IMG/VR virus record: IMGVR_UViG_2740892218_000011
DNA: 33,358 nt
DNA from: a virus
Taxonomy: Duplodnaviria; Heunggongvirae; Uroviricota; Caudoviricetes
Direction: 5' to 3' (one strand)
Positions 1 through 33,358 of this stretch are shown piece by piece; position 1 is the first letter of the stretch, and the number at the start of each line of letters is the position of its first letter. The position numbers and the translations under genes are program-made. The notes beneath the pieces are model-generated. The model was not told where the DNA came from. It saw nothing but the letters and a program-made list of their open reading frames with translations, and searched no databases.

Positions 1-1002
1 TTACCCTCTATTGTCAAAAGGGTTCAATTCAACTGCAGCCTCTAAATGACCTGGAGCAAAATGCGCATAACGCATAGTCATTTTTATATCGCTATGCCCC
101 AGTATTTTTTGCAACACAAGAATATTTCCTCCCCGCATCATAAAATGACTGGCAAACGTGTGACGTAGCACATGAGTTAATTGCCCATCAGGAAGCTCGA
201 TCTTCGCTCTCTTAATTGCAGCGTCAAAAGCCTCATAACATGGTGAAAATAACGCTCCTCGTTTTTTAGGAAGCATAGCCTGCAATTGAGGTGAAATCGG
301 TACAGTGCGGTTCTTCTTTCCTTTAGTTTTAACAAATGTGATTCGACCGGGCAGCACTTGAGATTGCTTTAATCCTTCAGCTTCACTCCACCGAGCACCA
401 GTCGCAAGCCCAATACGGACAACAACCCCCAAATCTTTATTCCGTGACTCATCACACGCAATCAGAAGGCGTTCAATCTCATCTACATACAGAAACGCCA
501 ATTCCTTTTCTTCCTCACGAAACTTGCGAATGCCAGTCAGGGGGTTTTCACCAGACCACTCCCCAAGGCGCTTCAGTTCGGCAAAAACAGCATGTAGATA
601 TGACTGCTCGCGATTAACGGTTGCTTCACTAAGTTTTTTCTTCCCCTTGGGATTCCATTCTCCTGATAACCTCCTTTCCCGATAAGTAGCAAACATATTT
701 TTGTCAAACTGAGAAGCAAATGGATCTCCCAGCCTGGAACAAATAGACTCAAGTTTGACTTTGCGCTCTGCACCAGAGGACAAGGTTTTACCGTACATCT
801 CAAACCAACGAGCAACCAACTCAGAAAGACGAGGACCAGAACCATCTTGAAACTCGTCTCCAACTCTACTATTCATTAAACGGCGCTCATAAGAGAGCGC
901 CTCACTTTTTGTCGCAAACTGTTTACGAATACGTTTTCCCGATGCCCCGTAAGGATAACATTCGCAAAGCCATTTACCTGATGGAATCTTACGAACCGAC
1001 AT
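1..1002 (-). CDS. int: Tyrosine integrase (P2-like site-specific recombinase)
   Basis: 333 aa ORF; C-terminal catalytic region with HxxR and ...LGHSDIKMTMRYAH motif typical of phage tyrosine integrases; sits at the prophage end adjacent to the repressor operon as in P2. Confidence 0.9.
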   Translation of the reverse strand: MSVRKIPSGKWLCECYPYGASGKRIRKQFATKSEALSYERRLMNSRVGDEFQDGSGPRLSELVARWFEMYGKTLSSGAERKVKLESICSRLGDPFASQFDKNMFATYRERRLSGEWNPKGKKKLSEATVNREQSYLHAVFAELKRLGEWSGENPLTGIRKFREEEKELAFLYVDEIERLLIACDESRNKDLGVVVRIGLATGARWSEAEGLKQSQVLPGRITFVKTKGKKNRTVPISPQLQAMLPKKRGALFSPCYEAFDAAIKRAKIELPDGQLTHVLRHTFASHFMMRGGNILVLQKILGHSDIKMTMRYAHFAPGHLEAAVELNPFDNRG

Positions 1003-1007
1003 TTTAG

Positions 1008-1355
1008 TTACTTATCACATAAATCAAATGCAGCCTTAGTGACATCTCCCAGATTCTTTTTTAACCCTGGGGCGGCATCATTATCCAGCCAAAATGGATT
1101 ATTGTTATCTAACGGTAACGCACCAAATGTTTTACCTTTTATTCGAGCCAAACCTGTAAGCGCATATAACTTATTATCGTCAAAATTCATCACATAAGGA
1201 TTACCATCTAGACACTGTAACTGAACCTCATCAGTATTAAATGGCCATACCCCATTGAAACTCTCACGTTCAATATTTTTAAAAGGCATTGCGACGGCAG
1301 AAAAAGAAAACATAGATAAAAAAGTAACTAATAGTTGAACATTTTTTACTTTCAT
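1008..1355 (-). CDS. Small secreted protein (signal peptide, two Cys), possibly YebY/DUF2511-like; prophage cargo
   Basis: 115 aa; N-terminal hydrophobic signal peptide (LLVTFLSMFSFSAVA), Cys48 and Cys113; region looks AT-rich by eye; lies between repressor and int, where P2 has no gene. Confidence 0.6.
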   Translation of the reverse strand: MKVKNVQLLVTFLSMFSFSAVAMPFKNIERESFNGVWPFNTDEVQLQCLDGNPYVMNFDDNKLYALTGLARIKGKTFGALPLDNNNPFWLDNDAAPGLKKNLGDVTKAAFDLCDK

Positions 1356-1384
1356 ACCATTACCTCAATTTAGCTCAAGTAAGA

Positions 1385-2035
1385 TTACAAATTAAAAAAC
1401 ATCCTAGAAATGGCACCACCTACCACCCCCCCTACGCAGATAAAGAATATTATTTCTTTTGGATAAAGTCGGATTAATTCTGAAGCACGAAGTCGGACTT
1501 CTGGTAAGGTCGAATTCTCTGTGTTGCTTGATACCGATTGTTGCTCTAACCACGACAATGCAGACTGCAACTGAGAACGAGTAAGATCGTTTAAACGTCC
1601 TGTACCGAAATTGATATGGCAATACCGCAGAAGTTTTTGTCGAAGTCCACAGTCTTCACTGTTACGTAGTAATAAACTTACAAGAGCCTTACAGGCATCA
1701 TGATCTTTACATCGCTCAAGCATTGCATGCAGAAAACTCTCCGCTGTTTTATATTGATTTACTGTCATATCATCAATACCAGCTACACCAATCTCCGCAT
1801 GTACTTTTTGCCAAATAATAAACGCTTCAGTATTGCTAGCTTCTGCAATAGCAGCAACCAAGCTATTTAGCTCCTTACGCTGAGCCTTAAGCAAAGGGCG
1901 ATCGTCATCATCATTATTCGAAGGGATTGCGATATTGACGGTATGAGAACCATCATATCGCCCTATCTGAATATTCTTTTCGTGAAAATCACGCCCAGCA
2001 ACGCGATTGTTTGAACCGTTTGAGTTGACGGCCAT
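1385..2035 (-). CDS. Tail-anchored membrane protein of unknown function (immunity-operon cargo)
   Basis: 216 aa; strong SD (AGGGAGGTG) 12 nt after the repressor stop; single C-terminal TM helix (IIFFICVGGVVGGAISRMFF); N-terminus shares the motif NNR[VI]AGRD[FY] with the repressor C-terminus. Confidence 0.6.
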   Translation of the reverse strand: MAVNSNGSNNRVAGRDFHEKNIQIGRYDGSHTVNIAIPSNNDDDDRPLLKAQRKELNSLVAAIAEASNTEAFIIWQKVHAEIGVAGIDDMTVNQYKTAESFLHAMLERCKDHDACKALVSLLLRNSEDCGLRQKLLRYCHINFGTGRLNDLTRSQLQSALSWLEQQSVSSNTENSTLPEVRLRASELIRLYPKEIIFFICVGGVVGGAISRMFFNL

Positions 2036-2050
2036 GTCACCTCCCTACTA

Positions 2051-2455
2051 TCACCTACCCTTAGTTTCGTTATAGTCACGCCCAGCGATACGGTTATTAC
2101 CGCCAGAAATATTTAACTCACGTCCTGATGGCTGAGTTTCCTTTTCACTGGCCGCACCTTTTAAAGCCCCGATCACCGCGTTTTTCACATCTAACGAAGC
2201 TGCTCGAAAGCGAGTAATCAACTCCTGCTCATCATCGTTATAAGTTTCAGGTGAGTGAATTCCCAACACAACATACTGAACATCAAGACCAAAACGAGAC
2301 AGCGCTGCCAAATACGCAGCATCAGGAAAGCTATCTCCTTTCTCATATCTAAGCTGAGTTAGCTTTTTGACTCCACCAATGTCGCTCATAGCAACTTGAC
2401 TAAGTCCCAATCTTTCCCTTTCCTCACGCAACCTCTGACCAATATCATTTTTCAT
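2051..2455 (-). CDS. Immunity repressor, HTH_XRE family (C/CI-like)
   Basis: N-terminal HTH (IGQRLREERERLGLSQVAMSDIGGVKKLTQLRYEKG); divergent from the early operon; start placed at the internal Met (MKNDIGQ...) because the longer ORF would overlap the divergent gene start. Confidence 0.75.
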   Translation of the reverse strand: MKNDIGQRLREERERLGLSQVAMSDIGGVKKLTQLRYEKGDSFPDAAYLAALSRFGLDVQYVVLGIHSPETYNDDEQELITRFRAASLDVKNAVIGALKGAASEKETQPSGRELNISGGNNRIAGRDYNETKGR

Positions 2456-2531
2456 ACAAAAAACCTTGACAGGTATCTTTTTTGATACCAAAATGATTTC
2501 ACGAGCTATTAGATGATCACAATATATCACT
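2456..2531. promoter_or_regulatory. Divergent lysogenic/early promoter-operator region
   Basis: 76-bp gap between divergent repressor and early genes; TTGACA hexamer at 2466-2471 immediately followed by perfect palindrome GGTATC-TTTTTT-GATACC (2472-2489). Confidence 0.45.
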
Positions 2532-3330: not shown

Positions 3331-3340
3331 CAGGTGCTTT

Positions 3341-3619
3341 ATGACCAAAGACCATGCTCAGGGTGTATTTATCCGCTTTATTGATTTTCGCGGTGAGCTG
3401 TTGTTGCGCGCATCAGCTATTGATGGAGTGGTTTCGGTAGATAAAAGCACGGCCACTTACATTTATCTGAACGGCACACGCCTGACCGTAGAGATTCCAT
3501 ATCAACCCGTATGCGAAATTATTAGAGAAGCTGAAAAAGCACGTCAGGTTAATGGCGATAAACCCTATCTCGAAATTATCTGCATGGATTCAGAAGCTGA
3601 AATTCAGAAGGCAGATTAA
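3341..3619 (+). CDS. Early-operon hypothetical protein
   Basis: Start set at ATG 3341 (MTKDHAQ...) preceded by CAGGTG; the longer track ORF from 3242 overlaps the upstream gene. Confidence 0.5.
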   Translation: MTKDHAQGVFIRFIDFRGELLLRASAIDGVVSVDKSTATYIYLNGTRLTVEIPYQPVCEIIREAEKARQVNGDKPYLEIICMDSEAEIQKAD

Positions 3620-3630
3620 AGGGCGTTGCG

Positions 3631-3873
3631 ATGGATAAAGAATATAAAACTCTCGTCAATAAAGCACTTGAGCGCTTTCATTTTCGCTTAAACGCATCAG
3701 GCGCTCATGCTGAACGCGCAGCCCGAGAGTCATTGACCAGAGCTATCAAGAGTATATACGACACGGCTTTTTACGTTGACGACCCGGACGCGCTCGACGA
3801 GCTTTCCGTACTCGTCTGCGCCGCAGAAAACGGGGACCATATTGAGCCATATAAACTGGGAAATATTGCATGA
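3631..3873 (+). CDS. Early-operon hypothetical protein
   Basis: 80 aa ORF with an AGGGCG RBS-like sequence upstream; no recognisable domain. Confidence 0.5.
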   Translation: MDKEYKTLVNKALERFHFRLNASGAHAERAARESLTRAIKSIYDTAFYVDDPDALDELSVLVCAAENGDHIEPYKLGNIA

Positions 3874-3983
3874 GTATATTTATCTCATGGCTTGTTCTGA
3901 TTATTTCGGTGGCCTGCGCTATTGGGATTATGCGAATTATTAATTCAGTAAAAAAGATTGAACGCTTTTTCACTGAAGAATAA
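3870..3983 (+). CDS. Small hydrophobic peptide (37 aa), translationally coupled
   Basis: ATGA start/stop overlap with the upstream ORF; encodes MSIFISWLVLIISVACAIGIMRIINSVKKIERFFTEE, one TM helix; below the 60-aa cutoff of the ORF track. Confidence 0.3.
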   Translation: MSIFISWLVLIISVACAIGIMRIINSVKKIERFFTEE

Positions 3984-4069
3984 CTGCGCAAATAAGACTC
4001 CAGGTTAAATAAGAAAATGTGAAAACAATCCGCATTCGCGGAGGTATTCGCACACACCAAGGAGGCGTA

Positions 4070-4273
4070 ATGGCAATTAAGCATTTTCCTGTCGTTCGTT
4101 TCACCTCCAGAGGACGTGAATACGAAGTTGACGAACGCCTGATTACCACAATCGACAAACACCGTTCAGAAAAGGATGCACATCACATCTATCTCACTGA
4201 CGGCACTTACTTCTGCGCCACCAACGTGGTGCAGGTGAATCTTATCAGACAGGTACAGGAGTCACGCAGATGA
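4070..4273 (+). CDS. Early-operon hypothetical protein
   Basis: Start at ATG 4070 (MAIKHFPV...) with a strong AGGAGG SD 5-6 nt upstream. Confidence 0.5.
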   Translation: MAIKHFPVVRFTSRGREYEVDERLITTIDKHRSEKDAHHIYLTDGTYFCATNVVQVNLIRQVQESRR

Positions 4274-4515
4274 CCATTCTGGACTATATCGCCGCCAATC
4301 CGGGGTGTAGCGGTGGAGAAATCGCCGCAGCACTGAATACCCCAACCACAGCCATTAATGCGGAGTTACGCCGTCTCTGGCGCAGCGGTTCAGTCATAAG
4401 AAAAGAACGCAAAACAGGCGGTCGCTTTTCTTATCAGGTAAACCCGATGCCGTTTGGGTGTAGCAACCCGCTAACCCAGATGTTCAACCAGCTACTGAGG
4501 GAAATCAGAGCATGA
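4270..4515 (+). CDS. Small putative winged-helix DNA-binding protein
   Basis: 81 aa; ATGA overlap with the upstream gene; pattern GEIAAALNTPTTAINAELRRLWRSGSVIRK suggests an HTH/winged helix. Confidence 0.5.
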   Translation: MTILDYIAANPGCSGGEIAAALNTPTTAINAELRRLWRSGSVIRKERKTGGRFSYQVNPMPFGCSNPLTQMFNQLLREIRA

Positions 4516-4656
4516 GCACCTCCTGCTGCCGGAAACCACGCCGGTCTTCAGCAGCTCATCCGGCAGCAAAACAAACTCCGTTAATTCCTGTTCCGGGCCT
4601 TTCCTGCACCTTGCGGCGGGAGGCCTTCGCACATCTGCAACAAGAGGATTGCCGCA

Positions 4657-30391: not shown

Positions 30392-30467
30392 AGTTCCAGC
30401 CCCTTGTATCCGTTAAATGATTCGGCAACAATCATCACCCACCACGCGCGTAATCTCATCCCTGCGC

Positions 30468-30495
30468 CGTTCTTGCCGCCCGGCGACAACAAAAA
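30468..30495. promoter_or_regulatory. Candidate late-promoter activator motif in the FI/D divergent intergenic region
   Basis: GTTCTTGCCG-N7-ACAACAAAAAG; near-identical bipartite motif with the same 7-nt spacer at 12574-12600; also reads TGC-N12-ACA. Confidence 0.3.
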
Positions 30496-30548
30496 GCAGT
30501 AACCCCGCCCGCACACACATGCGACCATGCTGCACAGGGAGGGAGCCA

Positions 30549-31658
30549 ATGATTGACACCACCATGCAACTGTTCAACCAGAGTACTGACCCCGTGAAGA
30601 TGCCTGATTTTGATATTCTCGCGGAGGGGAAAACGCTGTCCGGTGTGACAGAACGCCTGATGAGCCTGTCACTGACCGACAACCGGGGATTTGAAGCAGA
30701 CCAGCTAACCATCACGCTGGATGATGCTGATGGTCAGTTGCAGTTGCCGCTACGGGGCGCTCGCCTGACGGTTCTCATTGGCTGGAAAGGCGAACCGCTG
30801 ACAGAAAAAGGCACTTACATTGTTGATGAAATTGCTCATGAAGGACCGCCCGACAGACTGACCATTTCAGCCAGAAGCGCAGATTTTCGGGATGAATTTA
30901 ACGTCAAGCGCGAAGTATCCTGGCATGATGTGACCGTTGAACGCGTGGTGTCTGCAATTGCTCACCGATACGGCCTGAAACCGCAAATCAGCGAAATGCT
31001 GATGGATATTGAAATCGACCACGCTGACCAGACCGAAGAAAGCGACATGTCCTTCCTTACACGCATGGCGGAAATGCTGGGCGCAATCACCACGGTAAAA
31101 AGCGGTAATCTGTTATTCATCATGCCAGGTGGTGGCGTGAACGCGCAGGGAAAACCATTACCATCGTTTGCCATCACACGCAGCAGCGGCGATCGCCATC
31201 AGTTTCGCATTGCTGACCGCGAGGCGTATACGGGGGTACGCGCTTACTGGCTTGATCTTAATTACGGGAAAAAGAAAAAAGTCAGCGTGAAACGCCGCAA
31301 ACCGCCAAAACCCAAAAAGGAGAAAAGCAGCAGCCGTGAAGGTGACTATATGGAAGGTGCGGAAGGCAACGTGTTTGTGTTACGCAAGACTTATCAGAAC
31401 GAGCAGGCAGCAAGACGCGCAGCGGCGGCAAAGTGGCAGCAGCTACAACGCGGAGCCGCATCATTCTCCATCACGCTGGCGCGTGGACGCGCAGAACTCT
31501 ACCCCGAAATGCATGGCACGGTAACAGGATTTAAAAGCGAGATTGATAATCAGGACTGGATTATTGCAAAAGCCGAGCACTCCATTGATAACAGCGGCTT
31601 TACCACGCAGCTTGAGCTTGAGGCAAAAATCCAGGAATGGATAGCAGAAACAGAGTGA
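30549..31658 (+). CDS. D: Tail protein D (late control gene D family)
   Basis: Start at ATG 30549 (MIDTTMQLFNQ...) with SD GGAGGGA; 369 aa; gpD family by size and conserved segments. Confidence 0.8.
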   Translation: MIDTTMQLFNQSTDPVKMPDFDILAEGKTLSGVTERLMSLSLTDNRGFEADQLTITLDDADGQLQLPLRGARLTVLIGWKGEPLTEKGTYIVDEIAHEGPPDRLTISARSADFRDEFNVKREVSWHDVTVERVVSAIAHRYGLKPQISEMLMDIEIDHADQTEESDMSFLTRMAEMLGAITTVKSGNLLFIMPGGGVNAQGKPLPSFAITRSSGDRHQFRIADREAYTGVRAYWLDLNYGKKKKVSVKRRKPPKPKKEKSSSREGDYMEGAEGNVFVLRKTYQNEQAARRAAAAKWQQLQRGAASFSITLARGRAELYPEMHGTVTGFKSEIDNQDWIIAKAEHSIDNSGFTTQLELEAKIQEWIAETE

Positions 31659-31700: not shown

Positions 31701-31961
31701 ATGTTCCGTTGTCCGCTTTGTGGCGCATCTGCCCGAATCCGCACCAGTCGTTCGGAAAATGATTCAGATACCGTACGGAAAAAATATTACCAGTGTAACA
31801 ACCTGGAATGCGGCGTATGCTTCTCAACACTGGAGGCTTTCCATAAATTCACATCGAAACACGCCCCCGGCGTTCACTCTTCAGAGGGCATCCCGTGGAA
31901 TGAGCTACCAGCTTCGCACAGGGGAAACAACCAGATGAGTTTGCCATTACCTCAGAATTAA
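31701..31961 (+). CDS. ogr: Ogr/Delta-type zinc-finger late transcription activator
   Basis: 86 aa; N-terminus MFRCPLCGASARIRTSR...YYQCNNLECGVCF with the four-Cys arrangement of P2 Ogr (MFHCPLC...HQCQNVNCSATF, recalled); terminal prophage position. Confidence 0.8.
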   Translation: MFRCPLCGASARIRTSRSENDSDTVRKKYYQCNNLECGVCFSTLEAFHKFTSKHAPGVHSSEGIPWNELPASHRGNNQMSLPLPQN

Positions 31962-32021
31962 CAGGCTGAATTGCCGGAGTAACAAAAAAGCGATAGATTA
32001 CGCGCGGGTGCCTTTCGGCTG

Positions 32022-32234
32022 ATGGCTGGAGGGAATACCCGAAGGCCGGATGTGGAAAGGCCCCGGAAAACATCTCTGTTTAACCGAGGCCCTGACCATC
32101 TAACCTTAGCAAGTGATAGGTTAGCGCCTCCCCAAAAAAGGAGCAAGCGCTATGTCGCAAAAATCGCTTATGGCCATCACGTTCTGCGTGACGGTAATCC
32201 TCATCATCTGGATGCTGCACGGTTCGCTGTGTGA
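32022..32234 (+). CDS. mok: mok-like overlapping reading frame of the hok locus
   Basis: 70 aa ORF overlapping hok in another frame, as in hok/mok/sok loci. Confidence 0.4.
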   Translation: MAGGNTRRPDVERPRKTSLFNRGPDHLTLASDRLAPPQKRSKRYVAKIAYGHHVLRDGNPHHLDAARFAV

Positions 32235-32292
32235 AATACGGATGAGCTTCTGGGGAGCGGAGTTTGCGGCGTTCTTACAGTGTAAGCAGTAA
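32152..32292 (+). CDS. hok: Hok/Gef family type I toxin
   Basis: 46 aa MSQKSLMAITFCVTVILIIWMLHGSLCEIRMSFWGAEFAAFLQCKQ: N-terminal TM then SLCEIR...G..E.AAF, matching the Hok signature; below the ORF-track cutoff. Confidence 0.7.
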   Translation: MSQKSLMAITFCVTVILIIWMLHGSLCEIRMSFWGAEFAAFLQCKQ

Positions 32293-32378
32293 GGAAACCG
32301 CGACGGGGGAGCAATCCCCCGTCAATCGGTTGCTAAGGCTGGCCGAAGTGGCACCCTATCCCATGGACACAAACAAGA

Positions 32379-32413
32379 AAACCCGCAGCGTAAAAACTGC
32401 GGGTTTTCTTTTG
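32379..32413 (+). terminator. Rho-independent terminator of the hok transcript
   Basis: AAAACCCGCAG-CGTAAAAA-CTGCGGGTTTTCTTTT. Confidence 0.5.
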
Positions 32414-32483
32414 GAGCTCTCACTTAGCTAAGGTACCGTTAACAACACACATAATGCTCGCAAAACAAACCAGTTAAAAGTGA

Positions 32484-32765
32484 TTACTCAGCATTCTCCT
32501 GCTTCCATTGCCGGATCATTTCATCCGTAACATCACTCTCATAACATACCACGTCATACCCTCCAGTACGGCTATATGCACTGCGTCTACCACATCTACT
32601 ACCATTCCTTGCATGATTATAAGGACACGCACAATTGCCTGGATACGATTCAATGGATTCTTTAATTATTTCTTTCTTGATCTGAGCATCAGACTTTCCT
32701 GTTGCTGCATACCCACTAAAAGATACCAAACAAAAACAGATTGCCATTAATAAACCACATCGCAT
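32484..32765 (-). CDS. Small secreted Cys-rich protein of unknown function
   Basis: Start at the internal Met (MRCGLLMAICFCLVSFSGYAATG signal peptide); mature part has several Cys and motif CACPYNHARNGSRCGRRSAYSRTGGY; region looks AT-rich. Confidence 0.5.
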   Translation of the reverse strand: MRCGLLMAICFCLVSFSGYAATGKSDAQIKKEIIKESIESYPGNCACPYNHARNGSRCGRRSAYSRTGGYDVVCYESDVTDEMIRQWKQENAE

Positions 32766-33019
32766 ACCGATACACTCTATTACTAACCAATCATAACCCA
32801 CATCATAAAATCGAGATGTGGAGTACAACACCTTTAACAAGAAGGTGTCATAACGATAATATGCCGTGCAATTCATCAAAAAAAAGATCTATATCAAAGA
32901 GATAGAGCTCTTATCAGTGCTGCAGACATCGGCATTCGAGGCAGCAGAAAAACAGTAAATCTGACGAATTTGCCTTTTCTCAGGATGTTGTCAGATTAAA
33001 AAAGACAGATTAGCGCAGG

Positions 33020-33180
33020 TACCTTTTGGTGGATGGCAGGAGGAAAAATGAAGTCGAGTGGAAAAATCCCAGAAAAATTTTTGTTTAACCGAGGTCCTAG
33101 TTCACTATGCGAAATACGGAGGAGCTGCAGGAGAATTCGGCTTCATCCTTAGAGTTTAAACAGCACGTGCACTACTATTG
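33020..33180 (+). pseudogene. Degenerate hok-like locus (leader and 3' end retained, TM-coding middle deleted)
   Basis: 33020-33100 is about 70% identical to the hok leader at 32010-32100; GAAATACGGAGGAGCTGCAGGAGAATTCGGC matches the hok 3' region, but about 125 bp between them is missing. Confidence 0.35.
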
Positions 33181-33234
33181 TTTCTGCATATCGCCACACC
33201 ATCGCCACTCCACCGCCATTGCACAAAATACAAA

Positions 33235-33260
33235 TACAAAAAAACCACCCGAAGGTGGTT
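33235..33260 (-). terminator. Terminator hairpin downstream of the tRNA (minus strand)
   Basis: ACCACCC-GAA-GGTGGT stem flanked by an A-run (plus) / T-run (minus), about 45 nt beyond the tRNA 3' end. Confidence 0.4.
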
Positions 33261-33304
33261 TCACGACACTGCTTATTGCTTTGATTTTATTCTTATCTTT
33301 CCCA

Positions 33305-33358
33305 TGGTACCCGGAGCGGGACTTGAACCCGCACAGCGCGAACGCCGAGGGATTTTAA
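33305..33358 (-). tRNA. leuZ: tRNA-Leu(UAA), 3' portion only (truncated by window end)
   Basis: Minus strand reads ...TTAAAATCCCTCGGCGTTCGCGCTGTGCGGGTTCAAGTCCCGCTCCGGGTACCA: T-arm GGTTCAAGTCC, long variable arm, terminal CCA, UAA anticodon at the window edge; matches E. coli leuZ from memory. Confidence 0.75.

Follow-up and report, generated by a model that had tools for sequence, protein, structure and literature searches.

A probable internally deleted hok relic beside a hok/mok/sok unit at the cargo end of a P2-like prophage in leuZ of Escherichia coli

The stretch of DNA analysed here (hereafter the window; IMG/VR record IMGVR_UViG_2740892218_000011, 33,358 nucleotides, position 1 being its first letter) is a P2-like prophage of E. 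coli from the Peduoviridae, related to P88/Xuanwuvirus and integrated in leuZ: int lies at one end, ogr and gpD at the other, and the 3' part of the tRNA gene forms the flanking direct repeat. An ORF of integrase size, the genes closing the phage core, two regions related to the toxin gene hok, an AT-rich gene between these regions and the attachment site are arranged as follows.

1-1002, minus strand: int-sized ORF, which ends at base 1
30417-31658: gpD
31701-31961, plus strand: ogr, coding for the late-gene activator, last of the P2-like core genes (Pfam Ogr_Delta, E 2.4e-14; the RefSeq annotation of near-identical loci is concordant)
31971-31999, plus strand: predicted promoter of hok copy 1, with -35 TTGCCG (31971-31976), a 17-nt spacer and -10 TAGATT (31994-31999), as suggested by sequence reading
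32006-32352, plus strand: predicted hok copy 1 mRNA, comprising leader, mok frame, hok CDS and a 3' UTR pairing with the 5' end (Pfam, PHROG, Rfam, fold)
32022-32234, plus strand: putative mok reading frame, an ORF overlapping the hok start in another frame, taken from the ORF list
32152-32292, plus strand: hok CDS of copy 1 (Pfam HOK_GEF and PHROG 251)
32053-32146, minus strand: predicted gene for the Sok antitoxin of copy 1, placed by comparison with R1 sok
32375-32410, both strands: bidirectional intrinsic terminator closing the copy 1 unit (terminator scan), the last sequence in common with P88-like phages at other attachment sites
32462-32968, minus strand: AT-rich cassette with orf93 (GC 35-41%, vs 50-57% in the hok unit)
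32484-32765, minus strand: orf93 CDS, encoding a small signal-peptide protein with four invariant cysteines
32998-33098, plus strand: 5' part of hok copy 2, with the promoter spacer, CAGATT (33006-33011) as what remains of the -10, and a leader of about 80 nt reaching to GAGGTCCT (blastn, alignment, nhmmer E 5e-11)
33099-33163, plus strand: 3' part of hok copy 2, what is left of the last ~24 hok codons, frameshifted and abutting the leader (alignment and profile)
33164-33235, no strand assigned: attP phage arm, in which ATCGCCAC occurs twice as a direct repeat (33190-33197 and 33201-33208)
33236-33358, minus strand: att core, i.e. the complete 3'ETS-leuZ small RNA with its terminator and the 3' part of the tRNA-Leu(UAA) gene leuZ (100% identity to K-12 1991746-1991868)

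Prophages are known to integrate at leuZ in STEC (PMC8767318). ARAGORN found no tRNA in the window, because the end of the window truncates leuZ. In E. coli 55989 the 123-bp att core is repeated at the yecA-side junction (attL) and is followed by 112 bp and then the integrase gene; in K-12 the spacing from yecA to 3'ETS-leuZ is only 128 bp, and homology to the window begins at 33236. With 33236-33358 as the att core and no such cargo in K-12, the DNA from ogr through 33235 belongs to the phage, and with it the two hok copies and the AT-rich gene between them. The 1.4 kb from ogr to the leuZ attachment core is thus the cargo end of a P2-like prophage, and the first-pass annotation, which had read a rearranged toxin locus here and had proposed a comparison with the same chromosomal locus in prophage-free relatives, is not borne out as to a chromosomal setting: the prophage-free K-12 lacks the locus altogether. 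The two ATCGCCAC repeats in the phage arm are candidate integrase arm sites, a function that we infer; the repeat is kept in the corresponding arm of a Salmonella prophage, and E. coli 55989 has one more in its int-side arm. The prophage also carries, inside attP, its own copy of the 3'ETS-leuZ small RNA, an observation possibly more useful than the hok relic described below.

P2-like phage genomes carry cargo at variable positions, e.g. old, tin and Z/fun of P2. The region studied here resembles these classical cargo regions in that conserved phage modules enclose a self-contained, AT-rich gene that brings its own regulatory DNA, but differs from them in its position (ogr to attP) and in its gene family (PHROG 27544).

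Copy 1 (31971-32410) is to all appearances a complete hok/mok/sok type I toxin-antitoxin unit. Its Hok peptide matches PF01848 (HOK_GEF) with 30.3 bits (cut-off 22) and PHROG 251 ("MokW-like host killing") with E 3e-23, while the NCBIfam HokA model gives 35 bits, under its cut-off of 89, so that the protein is not a HokA equivalog. The Rfam sok model (RF01794), searched at E values up to 10, matches only copy 1 (40.9 bits at 32006-32140, E 2e-7); this score is under the gathering score of 59, and at gathering thresholds Rfam gives no hits in the whole window. The hok mRNA would begin near 32006, where the Rfam sok alignment also begins. In both the minimum-energy and the centroid folds of 32008-32352 the 5' end is paired with the 3' end (z -5.6), a predicted fold-back. 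Among 20 distinct variants of the locus the hok CDS has a diversity of 0.009, vs 0.06-0.12 in the UTRs; a near-invariant coding sequence between variable UTRs indicates purifying selection on the Hok peptide.

The minus-strand unit at 32053-32146 is presumably Sok, given its likeness in position to R1 sok. Its predicted promoter consists of a -35 TTGCTC (reverse complement of 32141-32146) and a -10 TAACCT (reverse complement of 32118-32123) at 17-nt spacing; transcription would start near 32111 and yield an RNA whose 5' tail is single-stranded and whose terminator hairpin is the reverse complement of 32059-32096, by analogy with R1 sok. The hairpin has a predicted energy of -24.8 kcal/mol (z -3.1), and the U run of the terminator is short. 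The consensus promoter scan does not have the copy 1 Sok promoter among its listed sites. In Salmonella, hokA keeps both hexamers with the 17-nt spacing, and hokB keeps the -10 and has TTACTC as its -35.

The unit shares with R1 hok/sok and with hokW-sokW of Sp5 (PF01848, RF01794) a Hok of about 46 aa with an N-terminal hydrophobic helix, the overlapping mok frame, a predicted antisense Sok unit with promoter and hairpin, and a predicted 5'-3' closing fold, and its DNA is 82-83% identical to Stx-phage hok loci annotated as MokW-like. It differs in lying after ogr in a P2-like phage, whereas the R1 and Sp5 systems belong to a plasmid or a lambdoid phage, and in that its function is read from sequence; hokW-sokW of prophage Sp5 is a working type I toxin-antitoxin system according to cloning and growth assays (PMC8621323). 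Copy 1 presumably works like these two systems: a stable, folded hok mRNA would be kept untranslated by the short-lived antisense Sok, and the membrane toxin would be made once the supply of Sok stops.

The ogr-hok region matches phage P88 and its relatives at 88-93% up to the terminator, and about 32412 is where similarity to P88, and to the prophages at ytfP, serS and raiA, stops. The hok gene is also present in prophages at ytfP, serS, raiA and flk, with ogr annotated alongside at the first three of these sites; past the copy 1 terminator the sequence is peculiar to the attachment site (leuZ int/att type). In E. coli strain PC6 a gene for a TM2-domain protein is inserted between hok and the hok terminator, i.e. 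other cargo has entered at the same spot.

The cassette between the two hok regions carries orf93, a member of PHROG 27544 (function not assigned in PHROG), with the motif SYPGxCxCPY...NGSxCGRRSAYSRxGGY. We found 221 homologs, reaching Pseudomonas and other Proteobacteria; none of these homologs has a Pfam family, orf93 itself falls into no Pfam or NCBIfam family, the AlphaFold2 model of orf93 has a pLDDT of 66.7, and a profile search of the PDB returned nothing below E 0.8. The family comprises widespread uncharacterised secreted four-cysteine proteins, which may be of more use than the relic. The same cassette (32462-32968), 83% identical, occurs in another E. coli contig (L096), where its neighbour is a copA-like ATPase gene, its terminator differs and hok is absent, from which we conclude that it is an independent cargo unit.

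To the right of the cassette, the hok leader recurs. Comparison of the window with itself or with near-identical loci by blastn pairs 31984-32093 with 32998-33098 (75.5% over 110 columns, E 1e-9 to 2e-11), and in a multiple alignment the two leaders are 72% identical. The first-pass annotation had described diverged direct repeats of the hok leader flanking an AT-rich gene, and the alignment that it proposed upholds this, at 72-75% identity; its placement of the repeats was right, though slightly narrow, the homology starting about 25 bp further left. It begins in the hok promoter spacer and extends to GAGG(C/T)CCT. A chance match or a generic motif without homology has a negligible probability as an explanation: the modest identity is the only point in its favour, against 110 colinear columns and a local alignment score of 76, which none of 2000 dinucleotide shuffles reaches (mean 15.6, maximum 29). 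Two further observations speak against chance, namely a second colinear block that matches the hok coding end and the fact that a hok-locus profile hits both blocks. The second block, 33099-33134, corresponds to 32221-32256 at about 80% identity (local score 35, shuffle mean 15.1, maximum 31, 0 of 2000 shuffles), and CTTAGAGTTTAAACAG matches CTTACAGTGTAAGCAG at the hok stop; the retention of the hok 3' coding end, noticed from the letters, is thereby confirmed.

The two blocks abut. Immediately after GAGGTCCT, which ends at 33098, copy 2 continues with AGTTCACTATGCGAAATACGGAGGAGCT, equivalent to copy 1 from hok codon 24 onward, and then with the last hok codons. An nhmmer search with a full-length hok-locus profile finds copy 2 in two pieces that abut, positions 12-115 of the profile at 33003-33099 (E 5e-11) and positions 243-312 at 33100-33165 (E 3e-4), with about 127 profile positions absent between them. 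The initial reading of the second copy as an internally deleted hok that had lost about 125 bp, including the start and the transmembrane helix, is therefore correct: the alignment is colinear in two pieces, and the 127 missing bp correspond to 32094-32220 of copy 1.

In terms of copy 1, the deleted segment comprises the predicted Sok promoter, start site, recognition tail and Sok target as well as the hok ribosome-binding site, ATG, codons 1-23 and membrane helix. Copy 2 has no Hok ORF with a start codon and membrane helix, and its remaining codons are frameshifted. Its -35 box is gone, the homology beginning in the promoter spacer, and the nearby TTGTCA lies only 12 nt from the -10, which is TAGATT in most variants and CAGATT in this window. 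The hok-locus profile (435 positions) matches nothing of a 3' UTR or terminator in copy 2 past position 312, and the last hok codons run directly into the att arm. The GC content is 41-44%, vs 50-55% in copy 1, and the diversity of copy 2 (0.088-0.104) is as high as that of the least constrained neighbouring DNA. We also considered a conserved fused Mok'-'Hok peptide, and rejected it, as the ORF is 34 aa or 13 aa long depending on the variant; AGGAGGAAAAATG (33037-33049) provides a perfect ribosome-binding site and ATG in all copy 2 variants, but the ORF behind it is not conserved.

The first-pass annotation suggested looking for an orphan Sok-like RNA from the second copy. Such an RNA might protect the lysogen against hok modules that phages or plasmids bring in, or reinforce the repression of copy 1; for chromosomal toxin-antitoxin copies an anti-addiction function has been suggested (bioRxiv 10.1101/2025.08.07.668861, discussion), and the part of the leader that overlaps the terminator half of Sok is indeed retained. 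The Sok gene itself is missing, however, because the predicted promoter, start site and 5' tail all fall inside the deletion, which covers the counterpart of 32097-32146 (-35, -10, start and recognition tail). What remains of the hairpin has decayed (-7.6 kcal/mol, z +0.18), the Rfam sok model does not match copy 2 at E up to 10, the consensus promoter scan finds no promoter-like site on either strand of copy 2, and the region varies at a neutral-looking rate. We consider an antitoxin role of this kind very improbable.

On the plus strand, the leader of copy 2 might act as a regulatory RNA, either as a decoy for the Sok of copy 1 or as an antisense transcript into 3'ETS-leuZ/leuZ, as the -10-like TAGATT is intact in most variants and copy 2 points toward the oppositely oriented leuZ operon 75 bp off. 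The -35 region has been replaced by the cassette, though, and neither the TTGTCA at its short distance nor the promoter scan supplies a promoter; the Sok recognition target is inside the deleted 127 bp, so that a decoy would have to pair without the initiation site, elsewhere the identity to copy 1 is only ~72%, and the leader has no stable fold (z +0.87). There is only a slim chance that this RNA exists as a regulator.

We favour the view, at a probability of roughly 85%, that copy 2 (32998-33163) is a non-functional hok relic, an ordinary unannotated pseudogene separated from copy 1 by an inserted cassette. As such it would make neither toxin nor antitoxin. Compared with R1 hok/sok and Sp5 hokW-sokW it amounts to a leader plus the last codons, with none of the functional features of those systems. 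Inactivated hok loci are classical in K-12: Pedersen and Gerdes reportedly found in 1999 that hokA, hokC and hokE of K-12 are disrupted by IS elements and hokB and hokD by point mutation or rearrangement. Copy 2 is like these loci in being decayed but recognisable at the DNA level, and differs from them in having suffered an internal 127-bp deletion and the loss of its 3' UTR rather than an IS insertion, and in lying on a phage beside a live paralog, without RefSeq annotation. A recent survey mentions the inactivity of the K-12 chromosomal hok loci and reports that hok is enriched in prophages, that about 3.7% of the hok-carrying phages have two or three copies, and that degenerate hok sequences, which it discarded, are common (bioRxiv 10.1101/2025.08.07.668861).

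The deletion junction, CCT followed directly by (A/G)GTTCA, is identical in every carrier sequence examined, i.e. in 20 distinct variants, in about 25 viral contigs from IMG/VR and in 20 contigs from metagenomes. The variants sharing it, which include E. coli 55989 and strain 184/2aE, are up to ~12% diverged, and the 127-bp deletion is evidently old and common to all carriers examined. At least 80% of copy 2 is present in 615 of 5,426 complete E. coli genomes (about 11%), beside leuZ in all loci inspected, and no annotated feature lies beneath any copy 2 match in this search. An intact copy 2 was found nowhere: a distant blastn search of the 5,426 genomes returned only deleted copies and copy-1-type paralogs at about 75%, the phage collection gave paralogous leader matches only, a pattern scan of IMG/VR gave 82 hits (mostly unrelated ribosome-binding-site-like sequences, the ~25 true ones all deleted), and all 20 contigs from the metagenome scan have the deletion. 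A scan based on ogr, with one genome per species, yielded five loci with only further copy-1-type units. A recent duplication does not agree with copies that are ~72% identical and a deletion that is old and present in all carriers. O157:H7 as a carrier of orf93 and relic without the phage was rejected, as there an IS30 insertion has deleted the gpD end, ogr and hok copy 1.

Linkage to attP explains why copy 2 is kept, constraint being a formal alternative. The latter would apply if the ogr-attP junction were a birth-and-death hotspot for hok and other small cargo in which copy 2 had been co-opted, for instance to space or bend the attP arm, to serve as a weak antisense promoter into 3'ETS-leuZ/leuZ, or to encode a short peptide behind AGGAGG-ATG. 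We regard co-option as quite unlikely; if true, it would mean that the fixed junction in about 11% of complete E. coli genomes reflects function, not linkage.

The history of the locus is illuminated by a Salmonella enterica prophage at the same leuZ site, with homologous arm and core (80% identity). Besides ogr it contains two intact 46-aa hok genes and a third hok unit, which an orf93 homolog (68% identity) interrupts after about 10 codons. This triple hok array is possibly a more useful object than the relic. In the window, removal of the cassette would leave about 70 nt from the copy 1 terminator to the transcript start of copy 2, similar to the tandem spacing in Salmonella. The first-pass suggestion that the secreted-protein gene was inserted between the copies is supported both by the occurrence of the cassette without hok and by the uninterrupted tandem hok units of the Salmonella relative. 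Given the three tandem units of the latter, the likeliest history is that of a tandem array that decayed and received the cassette: the phage end would once have borne tandem hok units, of which the one proximal to att died, and the cassette would have landed between units. The relic may have arisen by a single old deletion of 127 bp; it also lacks the -35, the 3' UTR and the terminator and has a frameshift, and it would since have drifted toward AT and lost its RNA structures.

Alternatively, copy 2 could have come with the leuZ-specific int/att module, recombined onto the ogr-hok module of a P88-like phage. Within a genome the hok copies are more alike than copies from other species (E. coli vs Salmonella), and the segments of the locus show different divergence; the evidence fits both tandem decay in situ and the joining of two phage modules. 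A further reading, in which the copies are the ends of two elements and copy 2 with its arm is the remnant of an older prophage alongside which the present phage integrated, could draw on the same mosaicism, i.e. the leuZ-specific DNA beyond the copy 1 terminator next to an ogr-hok region common to phages at other sites, and segments with different divergence histories. Phage-phage recombination accounts for this mosaicism without a second integration, though, and no extra att core or arm exists between the copies or elsewhere in the window; moreover, the whole ogr-hok-orf93-relic block is inherited together in all carriers inspected, and viral contigs carry both copies. Two successive integrations are accordingly improbable. 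The ogr-to-att phage end does accumulate hok units and cargo, and the P88 arm has two colinear 12-mers in common with copy 2, which could be an even smaller relic, or chance.

As a decayed hok locus, copy 2 is a new unannotated instance of a phenomenon that is already well known. Such relics are missed by protein-based hok surveys and by RefSeq annotation. In counts of toxin-antitoxin systems the live hok and the relic should make one entry, not two, nor should the relic be taken for an orphan antitoxin, and two repeats of ~100 bp at 72% identity are unlikely substrates for recombination. Though of little weight for biology, the locus provides an example of how phage toxin-antitoxin units are duplicated, die and are interrupted by cargo genes.

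The orf93 gene, located in an AT-rich cassette between the complete hok/mok/sok unit (copy 1) and the hok relic (copy 2) of the P2-like prophage, encodes a member of a widespread family of secreted proteins of ~95 aa with four invariant cysteines (PHROG 27544), to which no Pfam family corresponds.

Window 32484-32765, minus strand: orf93
Window 32462-32968: cassette containing orf93

Homologs were found in Pseudomonas, Geomesophilobacter and Alphaproteobacteria, and the AlphaFold2 model of orf93 reached a pLDDT no higher than 66.7. The stretch separating int from the repressor-like HTH gene (window 1008-2530) holds two cargo-like genes; their RefSeq labels in E. coli 55989 are DUF2511 protein and membrane protein.

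In the leuZ prophage of Salmonella enterica (loci L097-L099) ogr is followed by three tandem hok units (L097 about 3340-4520), two of which are intact with 46-aa genes, while the third is interrupted after about 10 codons by an orf93 homolog, beyond which the last hok codons may follow. In the raiA prophage of E. coli PC6 (L012, 2901-3322) an inserted gene for a TM2-domain protein separates the hok 3' UTR from the hok terminator, which is found again 370 bp downstream; this is a further cargo insertion at the same spot. In E. coli O157:H7 TT12B (L005, 4484-6329) an IS30 insertion has truncated gpD at its 3' end and eliminated ogr together with hok copy 1, and only orf93 and the hok relic are left beside leuZ. 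Among 20 distinct variants, the coding sequence of hok copy 1 (window 32152-32292) is almost constant, with a diversity of 0.009, compared to 0.060 in the leader (32008-32151) and 0.117 in the 3' UTR (32293-32374).

Copy 2 has a perfect ribosome-binding site with a start codon, and it shares two colinear, exact 12-mers, AAAAAAGACAG and TAGTTCACTATG, with the att-proximal DNA of phage P88 (L004).

Window 33037-33049: ribosome-binding site and start codon, AGGAGGAAAAATG
Window 32997-33008 and 33098-33109; P88 about 3449-3460 and 3505-3516: shared 12-mers

AGGAGGAAAAATG is kept across all copy 2 variants seen, and a 1-nt indel decides whether the ORF downstream of it comprises 34 or 13 aa. The integration site of P88 differs from that of the window prophage, and the E-value is about 0.08 for each 12-mer; the P88 segment could be a still more reduced hok relic, or the matches could be due to chance.

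The phage arm beside the att core carries a direct repeat, ATCGCCAC.

Window 33190-33197 and 33201-33208: the two copies of ATCGCCAC
Window 33236-33358; E. coli 55989 (L008) 2028-2150: att core, 123 bp

The repeat is kept in the Salmonella relative (L097 about 2930-2955), and the int-side arm has a single copy (L008 about 2243-2250); these elements are candidate arm-binding sites of the integrase. The core comprises the whole regulatory small RNA 3'ETS-leuZ, its terminator and the 3' part of leuZ. Thus, the phage itself carries a copy of an sRNA sponge of the host. Following integration, the 3'ETS-leuZ joined to leuZ comes from the phage, and another copy, devoid of the tRNA, remains beside yecA.
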